A stretch of DNA of 64,000 nucleotides from positions 32,001 through 96,000 of the forward strand of contig CAXXTH010000017.1 in assembly GCA_963668025.2 (NCBI GenBank), in the 5' to 3' direction. Position numbers and translations under genes: made by a program. Below are positions 13,199 through 55,643 of the stretch, piece after piece; the first letter of the stretch is position 1; each line of letters opens with the position of its first letter. The notes under the pieces were generated by a model. It was not told the origin of the DNA. It worked only from the letters and a program-made list of their open reading frames with translations, and ran no database searches. Origin of the DNA: Candidatus Hydrogenedentota bacterium (lineage in GTDB: Bacteria > Hydrogenedentota > Hydrogenedentia > Hydrogenedentales > SLHB01).

Positions 13199-13234
13199 TT
13201 TTTCTTAGACTTGATTTACAAGAGGAAACAAGAT
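13199..13234 (+). repeat. Solo degenerate copy of the repeat that flanks the GxxExxY gene
   Basis: ttagacttgatttacaagaggaaacaagat versus ttagacatgatttacaagatgaacaagat at 51592. Confidence 0.7.
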
Positions 13235-24882: not shown

Positions 24883-26013
24883 TTAGGAACCTGCTTTGCT
24901 GCTAGCCTTTTTCAGCTCCATCTCTTGTTCGAGTTTAGCAATTATGTCCGGCCTACGAAATGACGGATGATATTGCCTAGCACTAACCGGCTCACATTTC
25001 AGAAATGAAATGTCAGGCATATAGTTTAACTGCGGTTCAAAGACATGAAGAATCGGATGCTCTGTAAGGTGACCATCTATAAGCAAGTCCCTTCGCGTAT
25101 GATATTCAAATATTGGCATCTTAATGGTTGAACGATGTGTCCGCCATAAATTCGCCACATATTTGGTACAAGACGCAACACCGAAGTATATAGTGTCCAT
25201 TGAATTATGGAGTTGCAATGCATTGATCTGGGTAACATCCCTTTCGGTAGTAATATCATACCGAAGACGATTTTTATATGGCCCCTCATATTTTGTCCCG
25301 TCAAGTAGCATTACCATGGTCCTGGAATCGAGTGGCCAGAAAATCTGAAACCCGGGCAATTGCAGCCCTAAAGTTCCTCTTGTCTTTATGTTATGTAAAT
25401 AGGTATTAATGAAAATTACTGGAGCGTCACTAAAAATGAAAGGTAACTCTGTCTTATTGAGTAGCAAATGTATATCTAGATCAAGAATTAAAGGTACACA
25501 TTCTAGTGCGGCTTGGATATTCCTTCCGACGGTGGCGCACATTTTCTCACTAATAGAAATGCAGCCATCGTCGATCTCCTTAATGATGTCTGCATCATCT
25601 TTTTCTTCGAGGGACTCTTTAAATAGTTGGAGGAGAGTATTCTCTAGAGCAGGTGCCACTTTCTCTGCTTGATGAACAGTTCGGGCGCGCTGAAAGAGCA
25701 ATGATTGCAGAAAACACATATAATCTTGCTCCGACCACAGAGGAGCACTCTCGTTCCAAGCAACCTGTAATATAGTGCGTATGGCTTTACTGTGTTTTCC
25801 TTCAATTAAAGCAAAGCTCTTTTCAAGCTCTTCTGAGCCATAAATATTCCTCTTCTTACATTGCCCTAGGATTGATGCTCCGGTTATGATTTTACCATCT
25901 TTGATCCGTAATAAGCAGATTCTTTTTTTATCGGTAGAGAATTGTTTTATATAAAACTGTGGCACATAATGCTGATTAGAGTGTGCTCCCATTTCTTGGA
26001 TCCTCTCTAACAT
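24883..26013 (-). CDS. DUF4238 domain protein; AT-rich insertion
   Basis: NQHYVPQFYIKQF and FIFSDAPV motifs. Confidence 0.8.
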   Translation of the reverse strand: MLERIQEMGAHSNQHYVPQFYIKQFSTDKKRICLLRIKDGKIITGASILGQCKKRNIYGSEELEKSFALIEGKHSKAIRTILQVAWNESAPLWSEQDYMCFLQSLLFQRARTVHQAEKVAPALENTLLQLFKESLEEKDDADIIKEIDDGCISISEKMCATVGRNIQAALECVPLILDLDIHLLLNKTELPFIFSDAPVIFINTYLHNIKTRGTLGLQLPGFQIFWPLDSRTMVMLLDGTKYEGPYKNRLRYDITTERDVTQINALQLHNSMDTIYFGVASCTKYVANLWRTHRSTIKMPIFEYHTRRDLLIDGHLTEHPILHVFEPQLNYMPDISFLKCEPVSARQYHPSFRRPDIIAKLEQEMELKKASSKAGS

Positions 26014-26135
26014 ATATGATTTTTACAACTATTGTATGTAATAAAACTTATTTACAGATATTAATGAACAATCGTGCTTGAACGAGAGAATCATCGCTAT
26101 TTATCTTAGTTCATGTATTTGCATTTCTACAAGAA

Positions 26136-26789
26136 TCAAATGTCCCAGAAGGCCTCGGCGATGCGCAGGTCTTCTTCCGTCTTGATGACGTGCCCCTCGA
26201 TGCGGCTCACGGGGAAAAAGCCTACGCGCCCCGCATAGGTGGCGGTTTGCTGGGCGTCTTTCGCGGCAAGATAGGTGGACCGCCTCCAGCCGGTGACGCT
26301 CCAGGTAATCCGCTGGATAGGCTTGAGCTCTTGGGAGTTGGTCTTCTGGTCGAACCTGAAATTCACCGGTTCGCCTTCCATGGCGCATTCGATTTGTTCC
26401 AGCACACAGCTCAACATCGCATCATAGCCGCCTGTTTCCATGGCCGACACAAACTCGGCCACGCGCGGCGCGGGCAGCAGTGGCGCGATGGAGTGGACTT
26501 GAAATACCCGTTCGCATGGATGCGCCATTAAGAACTCATGGACGAATTCCTCGCTAGTGGCAGTTGGACCGGCCAGATCCAAGGGCCGTTGGTGAAATTG
26601 GACGCCCTCTTGTTCGGCGATCTCGGCGAAGAGCTCGTGGTCCGCATTTACCCAAATTTCGGCGAAACAACCCGCCGCCTTGCATTTACGAATCGCCCGC
26701 GTGATCAGCGGCACACCGCGCAATTCCCGGAGATTCTTGCGGGCCAACCGCTGGCTGCCCATCCGGGCGGGAATCATGGCGATATTCAC
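26136..26789 (-). CDS. Acylneuraminate/Kdo-type cytidylyltransferase
   Basis: IPARMGSQRLARKN motif. Confidence 0.88.
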   Translation of the reverse strand: MNIAMIPARMGSQRLARKNLRELRGVPLITRAIRKCKAAGCFAEIWVNADHELFAEIAEQEGVQFHQRPLDLAGPTATSEEFVHEFLMAHPCERVFQVHSIAPLLPAPRVAEFVSAMETGGYDAMLSCVLEQIECAMEGEPVNFRFDQKTNSQELKPIQRITWSVTGWRRSTYLAAKDAQQTATYAGRVGFFPVSRIEGHVIKTEEDLRIAEAFWDI

Positions 26790-48422: not shown

Positions 48423-48779
48423 GGCGCGAGTCTTCCTTTGTCCTCGTTGATCTGACGTTTCCACGATAGCACACCCGGAAGAAACATTCAAACGTTTGTT
48501 TGCATAAGGCTGGCTAATGGCCGCCCCCGTCATCTGATGGGATTCCCGCGCACCGGGAATATGAGCCGACTGTATGGGAATAAAGGTTTTAACGCCTTAT
48601 GTTGACACATAGAGAGGCAAAGAAAGCCTCTTATATCGGGTATGGAACGCGGGATATGCCGGGCTGTACCGTCTGCCACGGATGCGAGGGAATCCAAGAG
48701 GTGTTTTTATGTGAATGGAGTGGTATGTTTACATGACGCGCCGCCGCATCTATCATGCATAACAAGAGGTATAAGGGAC

Positions 48780-50273
48780 ATGGAAGTATCAGACACGGAA
48801 GCATCGGGGCCCAAATATAAGGGCAGCCGGATAGAACAGAGCAACCGCGAGGTGGCCGAACTGGCCAGCCGCGAGTATAAATATGGCTGGGTGACGGATA
48901 TTGAATCCGATACCATCGAACGCGGGTTGAACGAGGACGTGGTCCGCCTGATCTCCCTGAAAAAGGAAGAGCCAGAATGGCTCCTCGAATGGCGATTGAA
49001 AGCCTTCCGCCATTGGCAGAGCATGCACGAGCCGAATTGGGCCAACGTCACGTATCCGCCTATTGATTACCAGCAGCAGCGCTACTATTCCGCACCCAAG
49101 AACAAGAAGCCAGGCTCCATGGGCGAAGTGGACGCGGAATTGCTCGAAACGTTCAACAAGCTGGGCATTCCGCTCGAGGAGCAGAAACGCTTAGCGGGCG
49201 TTGCGGTGGACGCGGTTTTCGACAGCGTATCCGTGGCCACGACCCACCAGGAAATTTTGTCGAAAAAAGGGGTCATTTTCTGCTCCTTTTCCGAAGCAGT
49301 GAAAAATCATCCAGACCTGGTGCAACAATACCTCGGCTCCGTGGTGCCTTATGGCGACAATTTTTTCGCGGCCCTCAATTCGGCGGTGTTCAGCGACGGG
49401 TCTTTCTGCTACATCCCGAAAGGCGTAAAATGCCCGATGGACCTGTCCACGTATTTCCGCATCAACGCCGCCGAGACAGGCCAATTCGAACGCACCCTCA
49501 TCATCGCAGAGGAAGGCGCTTCGGTGAACTATCTCGAGGGATGCACCGCACCCATGCGCGATGAAAACCAGCTTCACGCCGCCATCGTGGAATTGATCGC
49601 CATGGATGATGCAAGCATCAACTACTCGACGGTGCAGAATTGGTACGCGGGCGACGCGGAAGGCAAGGGCGGCATTTATAATTTCGTCACCAAGCGCGGC
49701 ATCTGCAAAGGCAGAAACTCGCATATCTCGTGGACCCAGGTCGAGACAGGCTCGTCCATTACGTGGAAATATCCGGGATGCATCTTGCAGGGTGACAATT
49801 CCGTGGGCGAATTTTATTCGGTGGCATTGAGCACCAAGCGCCAACAGGCCGATACGGGCACGAAGATGATCCATCTCGGCAAGAATACGCGAAGCACGGT
49901 CATCTCGAAAACCATCTCGGCGGCCCATGGGAATAACAGCTACCGGGGCCGGATTCAAGTGATGCCGAAGGCCGAGAATGCGCGTAATTACACGCAATGC
50001 GATTCGCTATTAATTGGCGATCAATGCGGCGCGCATACCTTTCCGTATATCGATGTGCGCAACCCAACGGCCAAAGTCGAGCACGAAGCCTCGACCTCCA
50101 AGATTAGTGACGACCAATTGTTTTACTGCAAGCAGCGGGGCATTGGCACCGAAGACGCCATTTCGATGGTGGTGAATGGATTTTGTAAGGAAGTATTCGA
50201 GCATTTGCCCATGGAGTTCGCCGTCGAGGCCACAAAACTGCTGGGCGTGAGTTTGGAAGGGAGTATCGGATAG
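48780..50273 (+). CDS. sufB: Fe-S cluster assembly protein SufB
   Basis: [25 protein letters not shown] and HEASTSKI motifs. Confidence 0.98.
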
Positions 50274-51029
50274 ATGTTGGACATCCGTAATTTACATGCG
50301 TCCGTGGAAGGCAACGAAATTCTACGGGGTATCAGCCTCAAAGTGAATCCAGGCGAAGTACATGCCATCATGGGGCCGAACGGGTCAGGCAAGAGCACGC
50401 TGGCCCAAGTGCTCGCGGGCAACGAAGCGTATGAGGCCACGCAGGGCGAAGTCGAGTTCCTGGGTGAAAACCTACTTGAACTGCCTGCGGAAGAACGTGC
50501 GCGCCTGGGCTTGTTCCTGGCGTTTCAATATCCGATTGACATCCCCGGCATATCGAACGCCTATTTCCTGCAAGCCGGGTTAAACGAGATTCGTAAGAGC
50601 CACGGCCTCGAGGAACTCGATGCCCTCGAATTCCGGGAAATCCTGCAAGAGAAAATGCGCATGGTGGAAATAGACCCCAAGTTCGCCGAACGGCCCGTGA
50701 ATGACGGATTCTCCGGCGGTGAGAAAAAACGCAACGAAATCCTCCAGATGGCCGTGCTCGAGCCAAAGTTATGCATTCTCGACGAAACGGACTCGGGCCT
50801 GGATATCGACGCCTTGCGCATCGTGTCGGAAGGCGTCAATAAGTTGCGCGACGGCTCACGCGGATTCATCGTCGTGACGCATTACCAGCGTTTGCTCAAC
50901 TATATCGTGCCAGACGTGGTGCATGTGCTGTACAAGGGCCAGCTCGTCAAGACCGGCGGAAAGGAACTCGCCATGGAGCTTGAGGAAAAAGGATACGACT
51001 GGGTGAAAGCCGAATTGGCAGGCGTGTGA
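50274..51029 (+). CDS. sufC: Fe-S cluster assembly ATPase SufC
   Basis: [17 protein letters not shown] and LDETDSGLD motifs. Confidence 0.98.
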
Positions 51030-51037
51030 TGAAAAGA

Positions 51038-51180
51038 TTTTTTAGACATGATTTACAAGATGGACGAGATTTTTAAAGATGGTGTTCAGTTAATGGATTT
51101 GGCGAAGAGATGAATCGTTTAGAATGAATCATTTGAAATTGCTCATCTTTGTCTTATCTTGTAAATCCTGTCCAAAAAAA
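51038..51180. repeat. Inverted-repeat unit 1, upstream of GxxExxY
   Basis: ttttttagacatgatttacaagatggacgagat ... atctttgtcttatcttgtaaatcctgtccaaaaaaa. Confidence 0.9.
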
Positions 51181-51193
51181 GAGAGATAGAACA

Positions 51194-51580
51194 GTGGACA
51201 TTAACGAGTTGACCAAGCTAGTGATTGGTTCCGCCTATACTGTCCATAATGTTTTGGGCCCCGGCTTTCTGGAGAAAGTATATGAAAACGCGCTTCTAGT
51301 CGAATTGTTGGAGATAGGGTTATCGGCAAAACAGCAGGCGGATATACCAGTTTACTATCGAGGGAAAAATGTCGGAGACTTTGTAGCGGACTTGGTTATC
51401 GAAGAAAGGCTTATTTTAGAACTGAAGGCCGTGCAATCTCTTTCCAAAGAGCATGAAGTCCAGTTGGTCAATTACCTCAACGCGACAGGAATTGAGAATG
51501 GATTGCTCATCAACTTCGGACCTTCTGTCACGGTAAAGCGTAAATTCCGCCGATATGAAGCAGTGGAAGACATCAGATAG
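51194..51580 (+). CDS. GxxExxY family protein (PD-(D/E)XK-like)
   Basis: LGPGFLEKVYENAL, ADLVIE..LELKAV, QLVNYL and GLLINFG motifs; GTG start. Confidence 0.93.
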   Translation: MDINELTKLVIGSAYTVHNVLGPGFLEKVYENALLVELLEIGLSAKQQADIPVYYRGKNVGDFVADLVIEERLILELKAVQSLSKEHEVQLVNYLNATGIENGLLINFGPSVTVKRKFRRYEAVEDIR

Positions 51581-51587
51581 GGTGGTG

Positions 51588-51767
51588 TTTTTTAGACATG
51601 ATTTACAAGATGAACAAGATTTCTGAAGATGGGAATCTTAGAAATGATATGGAGATAAGTGTTAGATAAAACATACAGTATGAATAATAAAATATGGACT
51701 AATGAGGATGCTGCAAGTAAAAATCTTAGATTTATCTTGTCCATCTTGTAAATCATGTCTAAAAAAA
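51588..51767. repeat. Inverted-repeat unit 2, downstream of GxxExxY
   Basis: ttttttagacatgatttacaagatgaacaagat ... atcttgtccatcttgtaaatcatgtctaaaaaa (32/33 complementary). Confidence 0.92.
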
Positions 51768-51791
51768 TGTTCAACCATATAGGTTAAGCCA

Positions 51792-53111
51792 ATGAGTCAA
51801 ACGGAAGTATCGAAAAGTGGTTATACCAACGCCCTAGATGCCGCGGTGTCGTTCGAGGCCCCCGAGTGGGCGCAATCGTTTCGCGCACAGTCACGCAAGC
51901 GGTTCGATTCGCTCGAATGGCCCCACCACAAGCTCGAGGCGTGGCGTTTCACCAATGTGAATCCCATTGTGCGCACGCCGTTTCAATCGCTTCTTGAGCC
52001 TACCGCGCACAAACTGTCACGCGCGGATATCGCCCCGTGGCTGTTCGGCGAAGCGGACTGGACGGAGCTGGTGTTCGTGGACGGGTTTTACGCCCCCGAG
52101 CTGTCACGCATACCGGATACGGCGAAAGGTTTGCGCGTATCTTCGCTCCGCCAGGCCCTATCAACAGACAGCTCGCTGGCGCGCGGGCAATTGGGCGTAT
52201 GCCTCAATTGCGGTGCAGGCGTGTTCGCCGCGCTAAATGGCGCGTTCACCCTGGATGGGGCTGTCGTGCATATCGAGCCGCATGCATCCATCGCGGTGCC
52301 CGTGCATGTGCTGTACATCAGCATGGGGCGCGATGAACCTACGGCCCGCCATCCGCGCAATCTGGTGCTGGCCGATGAAGACAGCGAGGCCACGCTCATC
52401 GAGCATTATGTAGACCTAAACTCGGGCCAGCCCTATTTTAACAATGCGGCAAGCGAACTCCAGTTGGCGGACTCGGCGCGATTGTGTTATGCCAAGCTGC
52501 TCGAGGAGGGCCCGCAAGGGTATCATATGGCCACGACGGCGGTGCGCCAGGCGCGTTCGAGCGTGTTTACGGCATTTTCGTTCGCTTTGGGCGGCCAAAT
52601 CACCCGCAACGAAATATCCGTCCGCCTCGAAGGCGAGGGCGCGGAATGCGGCCTTCATGGCTTATACTTGGCCGATGAAGGCCAGCTCGTGGACCATGCG
52701 CTCTCCATCGAACACTTGGCTCCCCGATGTACGAGCCGCATCCACTGCAAAGGCGTGCTCGATGGCAAGAGCCATGCGGTCTTTAGCGGGCGCGTTTACG
52801 TCCATCGCGGCGCACAGAAGACGGACTCGAAGCAGCTCAATCAAAATCTGCTTCGCTCCGACAAAGCCATGGTGGACACGAAGCCGTTGCTCGAAATTTT
52901 CGCGGATGACGTGCAATGCACCCACGGGGCCACCGTGGGCCAGCCGCCAGACGAACAGATCTTCTACTTCCAGACACGCGGCATGAGCCGCGCCATGGCC
53001 ATCGGCATGCTGGCTTATGGTTTCGCCGATGAGGTGGTCCAGGAAGCGCCTATTGCGCGCCTGCGGGAACGCCTGGATAAGCATGTGTTTGACAAATATA
53101 GCCCGAAATGA
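51792..53111 (+). CDS. sufD: Fe-S cluster assembly protein SufD
   Basis: EAWRFT and KPLLEIFADDVQCTHGATVG motifs. Confidence 0.96.
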   Translation: MSQTEVSKSGYTNALDAAVSFEAPEWAQSFRAQSRKRFDSLEWPHHKLEAWRFTNVNPIVRTPFQSLLEPTAHKLSRADIAPWLFGEADWTELVFVDGFYAPELSRIPDTAKGLRVSSLRQALSTDSSLARGQLGVCLNCGAGVFAALNGAFTLDGAVVHIEPHASIAVPVHVLYISMGRDEPTARHPRNLVLADEDSEATLIEHYVDLNSGQPYFNNAASELQLADSARLCYAKLLEEGPQGYHMATTAVRQARSSVFTAFSFALGGQITRNEISVRLEGEGAECGLHGLYLADEGQLVDHALSIEHLAPRCTSRIHCKGVLDGKSHAVFSGRVYVHRGAQKTDSKQLNQNLLRSDKAMVDTKPLLEIFADDVQCTHGATVGQPPDEQIFYFQTRGMSRAMAIGMLAYGFADEVVQEAPIARLRERLDKHVFDKYSPK

Positions 53112-53117
53112 GGCAGG

Positions 53118-54395
53118 ATGATGGGCGTGATTATAGAAACAAAAAAACAGACTATTCCCCGGCCGCGCTCCCTCTCGGAAGCGGATGTCGAACGCATCCG
53201 GTCGGAATTCCCTATATTGGGATACCTCAAGGACGGCAAGCCGATCATTTATCTCGACAACGCCGCCACGAGCCAGAAACCCCATCGGGTGCTCTGCGCC
53301 CTAGATAAATACTATCGGACGCAGAACGCCAATGTACACCGGGGCGTGCATTTTTTGAGCAGCATCGCCACGGACGCCTATGAATGCGCGCGGAAAAAAG
53401 TCGAGCGGTTTATCAATGCGCGGCTTTCCTGCGAGATTATTTTCACGCGAGGCACGACCGAGGGCATCAATCTGGTCGCCCATAGCTTTGGGCGCAAGCA
53501 CGTGGGGCCAGGAGATGAAGTGCTCATTTCCTATATGGAGCACCACTCGAACATCGTGCCGTGGCAGATCCTGTGCGAACAGCAAGGTGCGAAACTGCGC
53601 GTGATCCCCATGACGCCGCAAGGCGAACTCATCATGGAGGAATACGAACGCCTGCTGAATCCCCGCACGAAAATCGTGGCGGTGACGCACGTATCGAACG
53701 CCCTCGGCACGATCAACCCGATAAAAGAGATGGTGCGCATGGCGCATGCCCAAGGCGTTCCATTCCTTGTCGATGGCGCGCAATCCACGCCCCATCTCCC
53801 GATAGACGTGCAGGATTTGGGTTGCGATTTCTTTGCCCTATCAGGCCACAAGATGTGCGGCCCCACGGGCATTGGCGTTCTTTATGGCCGCGCGGAACAC
53901 CTCGAAACGATGCCGCCTTATCAAAGCGGCGGCGACATGATCTTGTCCGTGAGTTTCGAGAAGACCATCTACAACTCCTTGCCCTTTAAATTTGAGGCCG
54001 GCACACCTGATATTTCGGGCGCTATCGGCCTTGGCGCGGCTATCGAATATTTGAACAGCATCGGCATGGACCGCATCGCCGCATACGAAGAAGAATTGGT
54101 GCGCTACGGGACCGAGCTGCTGTCCTCGATAGAGGGCGTCCATTTGATTGGAACCGCCGCGCACAAAGCGGGCGTGCTTTCGTTTGTGATGGACGCGGCC
54201 CATCCCCATGACATCGGCCAGATATTGGACGATGAAGCCATCGCCGTACGTGCGGGCCACCATTGCGCCCAGCCCGTCATGGAATTTTACGGCGTGCCCG
54301 CCACCGCGCGCGCGTCGCTGGCCTTTTACAACACCAAACAGGAGCTTGACGCCCTGGCCGCGGGGCTTCAGAAAGTGAAAGAGATTTTCGACTGA
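53118..54395 (+). CDS. sufS: Cysteine desulfurase SufS
   Basis: YLDNAATSQKP, SGHK and RAGHHCAQP motifs. Confidence 0.97.
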   Translation: MMGVIIETKKQTIPRPRSLSEADVERIRSEFPILGYLKDGKPIIYLDNAATSQKPHRVLCALDKYYRTQNANVHRGVHFLSSIATDAYECARKKVERFINARLSCEIIFTRGTTEGINLVAHSFGRKHVGPGDEVLISYMEHHSNIVPWQILCEQQGAKLRVIPMTPQGELIMEEYERLLNPRTKIVAVTHVSNALGTINPIKEMVRMAHAQGVPFLVDGAQSTPHLPIDVQDLGCDFFALSGHKMCGPTGIGVLYGRAEHLETMPPYQSGGDMILSVSFEKTIYNSLPFKFEAGTPDISGAIGLGAAIEYLNSIGMDRIAAYEEELVRYGTELLSSIEGVHLIGTAAHKAGVLSFVMDAAHPHDIGQILDDEAIAVRAGHHCAQPVMEFYGVPATARASLAFYNTKQELDALAAGLQKVKEIFD

Positions 54396-54850
54396 TGAGC
54401 AGCAACCGGGCACTATACGAACAGGTCATCCTCGAGCACAATAAGAAGCCGCGCAATTTCCGCGAGATGCCTGAGGCGACCTGTAAAGCCAAAGGGCTAA
54501 ACCCGCTGTGCGGGGATCATTTCACGATCTACCTCAAGCTCAATGGTGATGTGATTGAGGACGTGAGCTTCCATGGCGCGGGATGCGCCATCTCGAAATC
54601 CTCCGCGTCCGTCATGACCACCCTGCTCAAAGGAAAGACCAAGGCGGAGGCGGAAGCCCTGTTCGTCAAGTTCCATTCCATGATCACCGCCAATCCCGAA
54701 GACATCATCGACGAAGAAAAACTCGGCCGCATAGCCGCCTTCGCGGGGGTCCGCGAGTTTCCCGTGCGCATCAAATGCGCCACCCTCGCCTGGCACGCCA
54801 TGCTCTCCGCCATTGATGGCAAAGGCGAGGAATCCACCAGCACGGAGTAG
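54395..54850 (+). CDS. sufU: SUF system NifU-like protein
   Basis: NPLCGD, GCAIS and RIKCATLAW motifs. Confidence 0.96.
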   Translation: MSSNRALYEQVILEHNKKPRNFREMPEATCKAKGLNPLCGDHFTIYLKLNGDVIEDVSFHGAGCAISKSSASVMTTLLKGKTKAEAEALFVKFHSMITANPEDIIDEEKLGRIAAFAGVREFPVRIKCATLAWHAMLSAIDGKGEESTSTE

Positions 54851-54995
54851 ATGATTTGCGACAAGGTCCACACAGAGATGCAGACCTTTAGGAGGTATAG
54901 TAAGCCCGTGACTAGTTATGTATTTATCTAGTAAATTTGGCCGTTCTTGTTGGGGGACCGAATTGGGCTATCCACCGAAAGACGCGGGGGCTAAC

Positions 54996-55643
54996 ATGCA
55001 AAATGTATCCAGAGATATTATAGAAATTCTGCAGTATCTTCTGCCTGGGTTCGTTTGCGCATGGGTCTATTATGGTCTGACTTCACATAAAAAACCTTCT
55101 GAATTTGAGCGTGTAGTGCAAGCATTGATCTTTACTTTAATGATTCAGTCTTTGGTTTTTATAGAATCAATGGCGCTTTTCTGCATCGGGAAGCACACTA
55201 TCATTCTTGGTTCTTGGAGTACGAAAGTAGAATTGGTGAATGTGACAGTATTAGCCATAGTGTTCGGGGGAACGATGGCTTTCTTTGTCAATAATGACAT
55301 TCTACACGGAATCGCGCGGAAACTCCGAGTTACCCAAGAGACATCATTCCCCTCCAACTGGTTCCACGCGTTCTGCACTCACAGAACACCATATATTGTA
55401 CTTCATTTGGTTGACGAAAGGCGTGTATATGGACTGCCATATGAATGGCCATCGGATCCAGCAGAAGGCCATTTCGTTATAACAAATCCTTTTTGGTTAA
55501 CCGACAATACGGATCTAATCGATGGTAAGGAAGATAGAAGTGAAATGAGAAAGATGTCTGGTGTAGAATCGATATTGATAAACGTCAAAGACGTGAAATG
55601 GGTAGAGTTCATGGAAGCTACGGAGAGTAACAATGGGACATAA
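54996..55643 (+). CDS. DUF6338-like membrane protein; AT-rich insertion
   Basis: LLPGF motif, three TM helices, beta-rich C-terminus (LHLVDERRVYG..EWP, ILINVKDVKWVEF). Confidence 0.75.
   Translation: MQNVSRDIIEILQYLLPGFVCAWVYYGLTSHKKPSEFERVVQALIFTLMIQSLVFIESMALFCIGKHTIILGSWSTKVELVNVTVLAIVFGGTMAFFVNNDILHGIARKLRVTQETSFPSNWFHAFCTHRTPYIVLHLVDERRVYGLPYEWPSDPAEGHFVITNPFWLTDNTDLIDGKEDRSEMRKMSGVESILINVKDVKWVEFMEATESNNGT

Follow-up and report, generated by a model that had tools for sequence, protein, structure and literature searches.

The suf operon of a Candidatus Hydrogenedentota bacterium carries, in the spacer between sufC and sufD, a small gene of the GxxExxY family that is flanked by two hairpin-forming repeat units. 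This interval, the subject of the present analysis, lies at positions 51030-51791 of a 64,000-nucleotide (nt) stretch of DNA (contig CAXXTH010000017.1, positions 32,001 to 96,000 of the forward strand), which we refer to as the window and whose numbering is used below. Nearly all of the 762 bp between the two suf genes is foreign-looking DNA. Across 51000-51800 the GC content falls to 0.30-0.44, down from approximately 0.55-0.63. The order is hairpin unit 1 (arm L1, spacer 1, arm R1), 13 nt, the gene, 7 nt, and hairpin unit 2 (arm L2, spacer 2, arm R2), as follows.

48642-50273, + strand: open reading frame (ORF) within which sufB of the suf cluster lies
50274-51029, + strand: sufC (ABC ATPase), left border of the insert (PF00005 ABC_tran, 4.4e-23)
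51038-51070, + strand: arm L1, a T run at its start and 9-nt units (self-alignment; nhmmer arm model, 28.7 bits)
51071-51155: spacer 1, 85 nt, the AT-rich inside of hairpin unit 1, in which degenerate repeats resembling the units occur
51156-51180, - strand: arm R1, a diverged inverted copy with an A run at its end, 13 nt 5' of the gene start (nhmmer, 26.2 bits)
51194-51580, + strand: GxxExxY / PDDEXK_3 gene, 128 amino acids (aa), GTG start, D66-E76-K78 core (family profiles)
51588-51620, + strand: arm L2, a direct copy of L1, 7 nt past the stop codon (nhmmer, 30.5 bits)
51621-51733: spacer 2, 113 nt, the AT-rich interior of hairpin unit 2
51734-51766, - strand: arm R2, complementary to L1 and L2 (nhmmer, 29.0 bits)
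51792-53111, + strand: sufD, right border of the insert (PF01458 SUFBD_core, 5.9e-76)
53118-54395, + strand: sufS, suf cluster
54395-54850, + strand: NifU-like gene, end of the suf cluster
13203-13223, + strand: weak arm-like sequence standing alone in AT-rich intergenic DNA, without a partner arm (nhmmer, 10.1 bits, E 0.23)

The arrangement of the arms had been described in an earlier reading of this DNA made from its letters and ORFs (the sequence-only reading), and self-alignment together with a recount reproduced the order, coordinates and identities that it gave between sufC and sufD. L1 and L2 are identical at 41 of 45 positions, and their starts are 550 bp apart. R2 is complementary to each of them at 32 of 33 positions, i.e., both left arms pair with it over 33 nt at 97%. 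R1 (51156-51179), which had been called the more diverged right arm, is 92% paired with L1 and with L2 along 24 nt. The other structural details hold as well: the arms have an internal period of 9 nt, runs of T and of A flank the left and the right arms, respectively, on their outer side, and the two spacers share no similarity with each other; neither contains a GxxExxY remnant. A 26-nt arm pattern with at most 3 mismatches matched the window 3 times versus 0 times in 100 shuffles, and a two-unit pattern matched only the window arms in the 64 kb and nothing in 50 shuffles. Because these shuffle controls gave 0, the window arms are not a product of chance. The predicted RNA folds of the two units are stable, with -42 kcal/mol (z -3.2) for unit 1 and -60 kcal/mol (z -7.4) for unit 2. 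As had been reported, the window's ORF list contains no transposase around the locus.

The protein was assigned to its family without ambiguity. It matched TIGR04256 (GxxExxY; 5.3e-40, 136.4 bits against a cut-off of 35), as the sequence-only reading had proposed, and PF13366 (PDDEXK_3; 1.9e-40, 138.3 bits against a cut-off of 22, profile positions 2-116 of 117). In Pfam and NCBIfam nothing else matched, and the HUH/Y1 transposase feature (IS200/IS605 TnpA-like) was not found. In 34 sequences, the PD-(D/E)XK residues D66, E76 and K78 do not vary, nor do some twenty other positions. The AlphaFold model (predicted local distance difference test, pLDDT, 88; predicted template modelling score, pTM, 0.81) has an alpha-beta core. 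Its best Foldseek neighbours in the PDB are Cas4 SSO0001 (E 8e-5) and Hjc of Archaeoglobus fulgidus (E 8e-4, root-mean-square deviation 3.9 Å over 100 columns), followed by lambda-type exonucleases and lambda exonuclease. The similarity to Hjc and Cas4, to which the minimal PD-(D/E)XK core is nearest, is at the level of the fold only (template modelling score approximately 0.45-0.59), and a sequence search of the PDB gave 0 matches. Overall, the profiles and the model suggest that the protein is probably an active, minimal PD-(D/E)XK nuclease, and the predicted fold makes a structure-specific activity plausible.

The family is very large, with 17,315 cluster representatives at 50% identity (E <=0.001). 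Tandem two-domain forms of 250-390 aa account for 15 of the best 150 cluster representatives (P0241, P0242, P0244, P0247, P0250 and ten more), an arrangement hinting that the functional unit is dimeric and that the single-domain protein acts as a dimer; a homodimer co-fold of the GxxExxY protein scored 0.00, gives no verdict and is counted neither way. Among the relatives of the window protein there is one at 89% identity and there are many at 70-74%, some of them from Pirellulales and Thermoguttaceae, whereas the closest relative of SufD reaches only 58%; the host is probably a divergent member of Candidatus Hydrogenedentes. Since the GxxExxY protein is far closer to its relatives than SufD is, and the GC content drops at the locus, horizontal acquisition of the gene is indicated. 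PHROGs gave no match. A role as a defence gene was set aside for want of a basis, PADLOC yielding one marginal partial match (E 0.0033). A published passage mentions a GxxExxY gene only as a neighbour mistaken for cas4, and an excerpt from a 2012 survey of the superfamily gives the function of PDDEXK_3/PF13366 as unknown. A full-text literature search under the family names, with subscription journals and database family descriptions outside its scope, returned no functional study and no account of such a gene-hairpin module, and a search for arm strings returned unrelated primers only.

The arms belong to a family of hairpins that extends far beyond the window. The pattern TTRGACNKGATTTACAAGA, which covers all five window copies, was scanned against genome contigs and recovered at least 117 loci from at least 9 phylum-level groups; the window's own genome is not among the matches listed. 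In the 122 arms listed, the two degenerate positions of the pattern are near-uniform (A in 119 of 122, G in 116 of 122) and the next unit is conserved too, and the matches are therefore homologous rather than accidental, except that about 9 of the 117 listed loci are chance matches inside genes. The sequence-only reading had taken the arms for a local pair resembling REPINs, the hairpins formed by two repetitive extragenic palindromic (REP) sequences; they are instead members of this cross-phylum family. Judged by record title, the hosts of the listed loci are Acidobacteriota (many of them Pyrinomonadaceae and Blastocatellia), Planctomycetota, Verrucomicrobiota including Kiritimatiellia, Chloroflexota, Bacteroidota, Desulfobacterota-type 'Deltaproteobacteria', Nitrospinaceae, Sumerlaeota and Latescibacterota.

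Each of these arms, which we call type A, opens with the common core TTAGACAGGATTTACAAGAT and continues with further GATnnACAR units. The typical listed member is a hairpin of 60-100 nt with a short loop, mostly complete and gene-less. The hairpins sit in the spacers of housekeeping genes, often filling the whole spacer and touching the upstream stop codon; in two loci the arm itself supplies it, the upstream housekeeping ORF ending in the TAG of the arm sequence TTAGAC (L013:2001-2004, L017:2001-2004). According to Pfam, the neighbours include transketolase, thymidylate synthase, riboflavin genes and transporters, and the 142 ORFs beside arm loci contain no recurrent transposase or integrase. 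None of the 142 encodes a known transposase. Gene-less arm copies are dispersed over intergenic sites.

Only one gene family, GxxExxY, recurs beside or between the arms of the listed loci (Pfam and tblastn). The tblastn search placed it in 5 of the 117 listed loci (L010, L018, L046, L049, L110). All five genes abut an arm, with the gene end within approximately 60 bp; the sequence retrieved around the loci contains no additional copy. The locus from Thermoguttaceae (L010) has the hairpin-gene-hairpin layout of the window. In the loci from Blastocatellia (L046) and Kiritimatiellia (L018), the order is arm, ribosome-binding site (RBS), gene, arm, which puts the gene in the loop of a single hairpin; the layout first proposed is real and is not the sole form. 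The stop codon of the gene in L046 and L110 is the TAA at the outer end of the arm, and GxxExxY ORFs end in a TAA or TGA of an arm unit (L046:2001-2003; L119:1912-1914, the latter from a plasmid record described below).

The same junction is written into the proteins. C-terminal tails such as RQD, RQDLQD or QDSQD occur in 72 of the best 120 homologues (53-89% identical). Tails of this kind translate the arm in frame (AGA CAG GAT TTA CAA GAT), one 9-nt unit making three codons, and they start a few residues past a conserved K-R-K-F-R motif, at a near-fixed distance from the protein core. Also among the best 120, 2 have NPV-type tails that translate the opposite arm, and 3 have an N-terminal extension that translates it, as does the long form of the window ORF (MSYLVNPVQ...). 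Independent colonisation would not create a gene-arm junction that is conserved across a very large clade. Translated arms were also seen in about 14 of 150 diverse cluster representatives, a count that gives no rate because the motif anchors failed for most of them. The gene and its arms form a conserved physical module, coupled across the protein clade and across phyla. This module sits in operon spacers in the direction of its neighbours: the gene is co-directional with both of them in 9 of the 10 loci with usable neighbour calls (window, arm loci and plasmid records).

Two arm loci deserve a separate mention. In a Chloroflexota metagenome-assembled genome (MAG; L012:1990-2290), 2 nt separate an arm from a VapB antitoxin gene; apart from GxxExxY, this is the sole small mobile-type gene seen beside an arm. 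In a Bacteroidales MAG (L049:1905-2403), approximately 16 arm copies follow one another head to tail with a period of approximately 31 nt and without spacers; the array sits between a cas1 gene (879-1883) and the GxxExxY gene (2477-2863). We rejected a CRISPR array (clustered regularly interspaced short palindromic repeats) as its identity, the repeats being arm repeats without spacers.

A gene-centred sample was obtained by tblastn against plasmid records, which gave 8 records with 34-50% identity to the query. The sequence-only reading had suggested examining the flanks of GxxExxY genes for paired inverted repeats, and 5 of these 8 loci (L119, L120, L122, L123, L124) are bracketed by inverted arms of short tandem units whose sequence is lineage-specific. 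The arms of Bacteroides consist of CACAGAGGA-type units (30 nt, 90%) and those of Sphingomonas of CGCGAAGG-type units (25 nt, 92%), while the arms of Bernardetia span 28 nt at 86% and those of Treponema 16 nt at 88%. Gemmatirosa has a hairpin-gene-hairpin arrangement of 11-nt GGACTGAAGAA units with the stop codon inside the first unit, and the Prevotella locus has periodic repeats downstream only. In the annotated plasmid loci, the gene again lies co-directionally between housekeeping-type pairs, namely radA and an FAD-dependent protein gene, ade and a mannose-1-phosphate guanylyltransferase gene, and fabD and fabG. On a Fusobacteria plasmid (L118:1440-1930), direct copies of approximately 20 nt (CAGATTTAATCCGTGTACCTA) stand before and after the gene; these are not inverted arms.

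Of four other arm types tested, three are dispersed repeats. The Gemmatirosa hairpin was counted at 39 and 28 places on two 1-Mb replicons, numbers that are too low (at least 67 in all). The Bacteroides arm was found in 16 Bacteroides records and the Sphingomonas arm in 9 Sphingomonas records; a 24.8-kb B. finegoldii record (L126) carries gene-less Bacteroides-type hairpins with loops of 100-130 nt. The Gemmatirosa records NZ_CP007129.1 and NZ_CP007130.1 (H30, H34) further contain, in 32 and 38 places, the Bacteroides-type arm of CACAGAGGA units at 94% identity, and a second arm type is therefore shared by more than one phylum.

A tree of 13 proteins relates these arm types to the nuclease. 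The five type A loci form one clade, at 47-66% identity, from five host groups. The Bacteroides and Bernardetia proteins pair at 55%, and their arms are similar. Within Bacteroidales, on the other hand, three arm types are present: type A in L049, type B in the Bacteroides locus L120 and another type in Prevotella. In this small sample, arm type thus follows the protein clade and not the host, as expected from the co-variation that the sequence-only reading had proposed to look for.

Taking the locus, the arm family and the other clades together, we read 51030-51791 as a horizontally acquired selfish module, consisting of a minimal PD-(D/E)XK nuclease gene and its cognate palindromic repeats, with a probability of roughly one half. 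The module would have lodged in the sufC-sufD spacer and would be co-transcribed with the operon. The nuclease would recognise its own arm type, whether in duplex form or extruded into a hairpin or cruciform. The resulting breaks would let the module be copied to new intergenic sites without target duplication, and gene-less hairpins could be copied likewise, in trans. The hairpin-gene-hairpin form may arise when a gene with one hairpin recombines with a resident hairpin; such recombination would leave two similar arm pairs around unrelated spacers. As a whole, the module would be a functional analogue of REPINs and their RAYT genes (REP-associated tyrosine transposases) built on a different fold.

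A RAYT is a small nuclease-type gene flanked by a palindromic repeat; most copies of the repeat are intergenic and gene-less, each gene lineage has its own repeat type, and targets are not duplicated. Here too the gene is flanked by its cognate repeat, both with type A arms (window, L010, L018, L046) and with other arm types (L119, L120, L122, L123, L124), and we again see scattered gene-less copies, a repeat type per gene lineage and no target duplication. Many repeat copies in the genome of the gene are present for the Gemmatirosa, Bacteroides and Sphingomonas arms and not for the Bernardetia arm; in the window there are four arms and the weak solo one in 64 kb. The pairing of a nuclease gene with dispersed palindromes of its own is a design known from RAYT/REP; what differs is the fold, the construction of the arms from periodic units, and the range of phyla that one arm type covers. 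Specifically, the present protein has a PD-(D/E)XK fold and not that of an HUH/Y1 transposase; its arms are tandem 9-11-nt units, whereas a REP is a single stem; one arm type spans at least 9 phylum-level groups; and the gene is typically co-directional in operons and known here from sequence only. The RAYT/REP analogy drawn by the sequence-only reading is therefore supported by the gene-arm association and by the co-variation of arms and clades, and not by mechanism, which stays conditional.

Generalising from this locus, GxxExxY proteins may be the mobilising enzymes of a hitherto unrecognised superfamily of palindromic-repeat elements, each clade reading its own arms of 9-11-nt units and spreading itself and gene-less hairpins in at least 9 phylum-level groups, as the PD-(D/E)XK counterpart of RAYT/REPIN. 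We advance this wider proposal tentatively, at somewhat less than an even chance.

Several observations weigh against the selfish-module reading. Approximately 95% of the listed arm loci are without the gene and only approximately 5% have it, and in the MAGs richest in listed arm loci, no arm locus has the gene within 2 kb. Some hairpins occupy one and the same site in several genomes, which is 3' of the transketolase gene in L009, L011 and L047 and, in L030 and L069, in the spacer that separates thyA from the homoserine dehydrogenase gene. Copies can therefore be old, long-lasting and immobile, and such site-conserved hairpins are perhaps useful to the host. Direct target duplications of at least 3 nt were absent from all 12 precisely bounded hairpins (0/12), a small sample in which some flanks merely prolong the palindrome; the sequence-only reading had seen no target-site duplication (TSD) at the window locus either. 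The 64-kb window contains no further copies besides the four arms and the one solo. That solo had been reported near 13199, and it does exist at 13203-13223 as a weak match. No further copy of the Bernardetia arm occurs on its 600-kb replicon, and the Fusobacteria and Persicobacter loci (L118, L121) have no clear bracket; arms can therefore exist without dispersal, and genes without clear arms. Sampling adds to these points, the gene-centred sample being small and the type A loci other than the window having been picked through the arm itself. Finally, binding, cleavage, an excision product and a pair of filled and empty sites are all unobserved in what is an analysis of sequences.

The main rival places the function of the hairpins in RNA. 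They would be processing sites (of the RNase III type, as in the intervening sequences of rRNA), stabilising stems or translational insulators that accompany the gene, by which a promoterless foreign ORF could be expressed within a host operon with little harm; solo hairpins would be the scars left when the gene was lost through recombination of its flanking hairpins. The orientation of the gene speaks for this account, since co-directionality in 9 of 10 loci makes the gene probably dependent on host transcription. So do the positions of the arms, next to the RBS at one end of the gene and overlapping the stop codon at the other, and the direct arm copies of the hairpin-gene-hairpin layout would allow deletion to a single hairpin. 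Gene-less hairpins also favour tandem (41) and convergent (16) spacers over divergent ones (7), with 9 loci unclassed. There is a precedent in the intervening sequence (IVS) of 23S rRNA, which lies in an rRNA helix and is excised by RNase III, and whose ORF product is a four-helix bundle. According to an excerpt of the published account, the IVS of Coxiella is a 428-nt selfish insert carrying an ORF (PMC4990558). As in the IVS of Coxiella and Leptospira (S23p), we see a selfish-type insert of a few hundred nt, with an ORF within inverted repeats, co-transcribed with an essential unit (PMC4990558, same excerpt); unlike them, the present insert lies in the spacer of an mRNA operon, its ORF encodes a nuclease, and it has no RNA-strand signal.

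This last point was quantified on the 19 complete hairpins that lie between tandem genes. G-U pairs numbered 25 in the sense and 25 in the antisense orientation, the mean fold energies were -37.1 (sense) versus -38.1 kcal/mol (antisense), and the sense strand was more stable in 8 hairpins and less stable in 11 (p 0.42). This parity gives no sign of selection on the RNA of one strand, at low power for a sample of this size. The units are not intrinsic terminators, because the stem has its T run on the 5' side and its A run on the 3' side; a terminator scan found no terminator-like site within the hairpin units, and the counts from promoter and terminator scans equalled the shuffle expectation. 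Rfam gave only noise from microRNA (miRNA) models in the window at 50900-51900 (20 bits versus 130). In 20 arm loci the hairpins matched only generic miRNA-hairpin models, all below the gathering cut-off, and the sole match above it was an unrelated tRNA in L084. The suggestion that the spacers form small RNAs is likewise unsupported, with no Rfam match. An RNA-level role leaves unexplained how the module arrives at new sites and why arm type tracks the protein clade. Overall, we consider it unlikely, if the strongest of the alternatives.

A third reading turns the relation around: the hairpin family spreads by other means, and GxxExxY is a free-standing endonuclease of the homing type that would cleave empty hairpins, whereupon repair through arm homology copies its gene into them or next to them. 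The arm-gene-arm loci L046 and L018 coexist with arm-arm hairpins of the same sequence, like occupied and empty sites, and no target is duplicated. As with free-standing homing endonuclease genes, the nuclease gene is small, AT-rich relative to its host, horizontally mobile and placed between conserved genes, and the protein is far more similar across hosts than SufD. Against this, the commonest layout in the clade is a complete hairpin beside the gene and not a split one (window, L010 and the peptide tails), no independent agent of hairpin spread appears among the 142 neighbouring ORFs, and the arms offer only approximately 30 bp of homology. We know of no homing genes that carry dispersed hairpin repeats of their own. 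We judge this reading to be quite improbable.

Least probable is a coincidence, either of unrelated passengers in permissive spacers or of host repeats colonising spacers made by the gene: the approximately 95% of gene-less loci and the hairpins at many unrelated intergenic sites, some of them conserved at orthologous positions, would suit it, but the gene-arm coupling and the arms that other clades possess of their own make it unlikely, given that 5 of 5 genes found abut an arm, that the distance from core to arm is near-constant in 72 of the best 120 homologues, that the bracket design recurs with other sequences in five other lineages, and that the window, L010 and Gemmatirosa have a hairpin on either side of the gene.

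Other known elements resemble the proposed module in part. Miniature inverted-repeat transposable elements (MITEs) and terminal-inverted-repeat (TIR) transposons, e.g., Correia elements, are similar in that short, intergenic, gene-less copies share inverted termini with a gene-bearing form. They differ in that here the TSD count is 0/12 (a small sample), no DDE or other known transposase is nearby, the termini are arrays of periodic units, and the only gene enclosed is GxxExxY. An integron cassette with its attC site also consists of a promoterless ORF followed by an imperfect palindrome, and a circular cassette joined to a resident site would give hairpin-gene-hairpin; by contrast, we find single cassettes inside housekeeping operons and not attI arrays. 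We rejected attC as the identity of the arms: no integrase occurs near the locus or the listed arm loci, and the outer ends are in the wrong order (compared by eye with the attC core motifs). The ORFs around 47-56 kb are the suf genes, an outer-membrane efflux protein and a DUF6338 gene. Arrays of DnaA boxes or Fur boxes were rejected as well, the sequences not fitting the consensus.

Two further genes of the window lie in DNA of low GC content. The DUF6338 gene (2.9e-13), at 54918-55643, follows straight after the NifU-like gene in lower-GC DNA and may be another foreign insert at the end of the operon. A DUF4238 gene (3.3e-39), at 24883-26013, is located in the window's lowest-GC island (approximately 25000-26180, GC down to 0.29).

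For genome annotation, inserts inside operons such as those at sufC/sufD and fabD/fabG should be flagged as foreign modules and not as operon members. If the protein acts on the arms, the module would represent a second, independent origin of the lifestyle of a nuclease plus cognate repeat that is known from RAYT/REPIN, and the protein could be a compact, sequence-programmable, structure-specific nuclease. Should GxxExxY proteins indeed be the mobilisers of these repeats, a new chemistry of transposition or homing would reside in a protein of 125 residues. The link to lineage-specific dispersed hairpins gives the very large GxxExxY family a testable role, and it would also explain conserved intergenic palindromes from Acidobacteriota to Bacteroidota.

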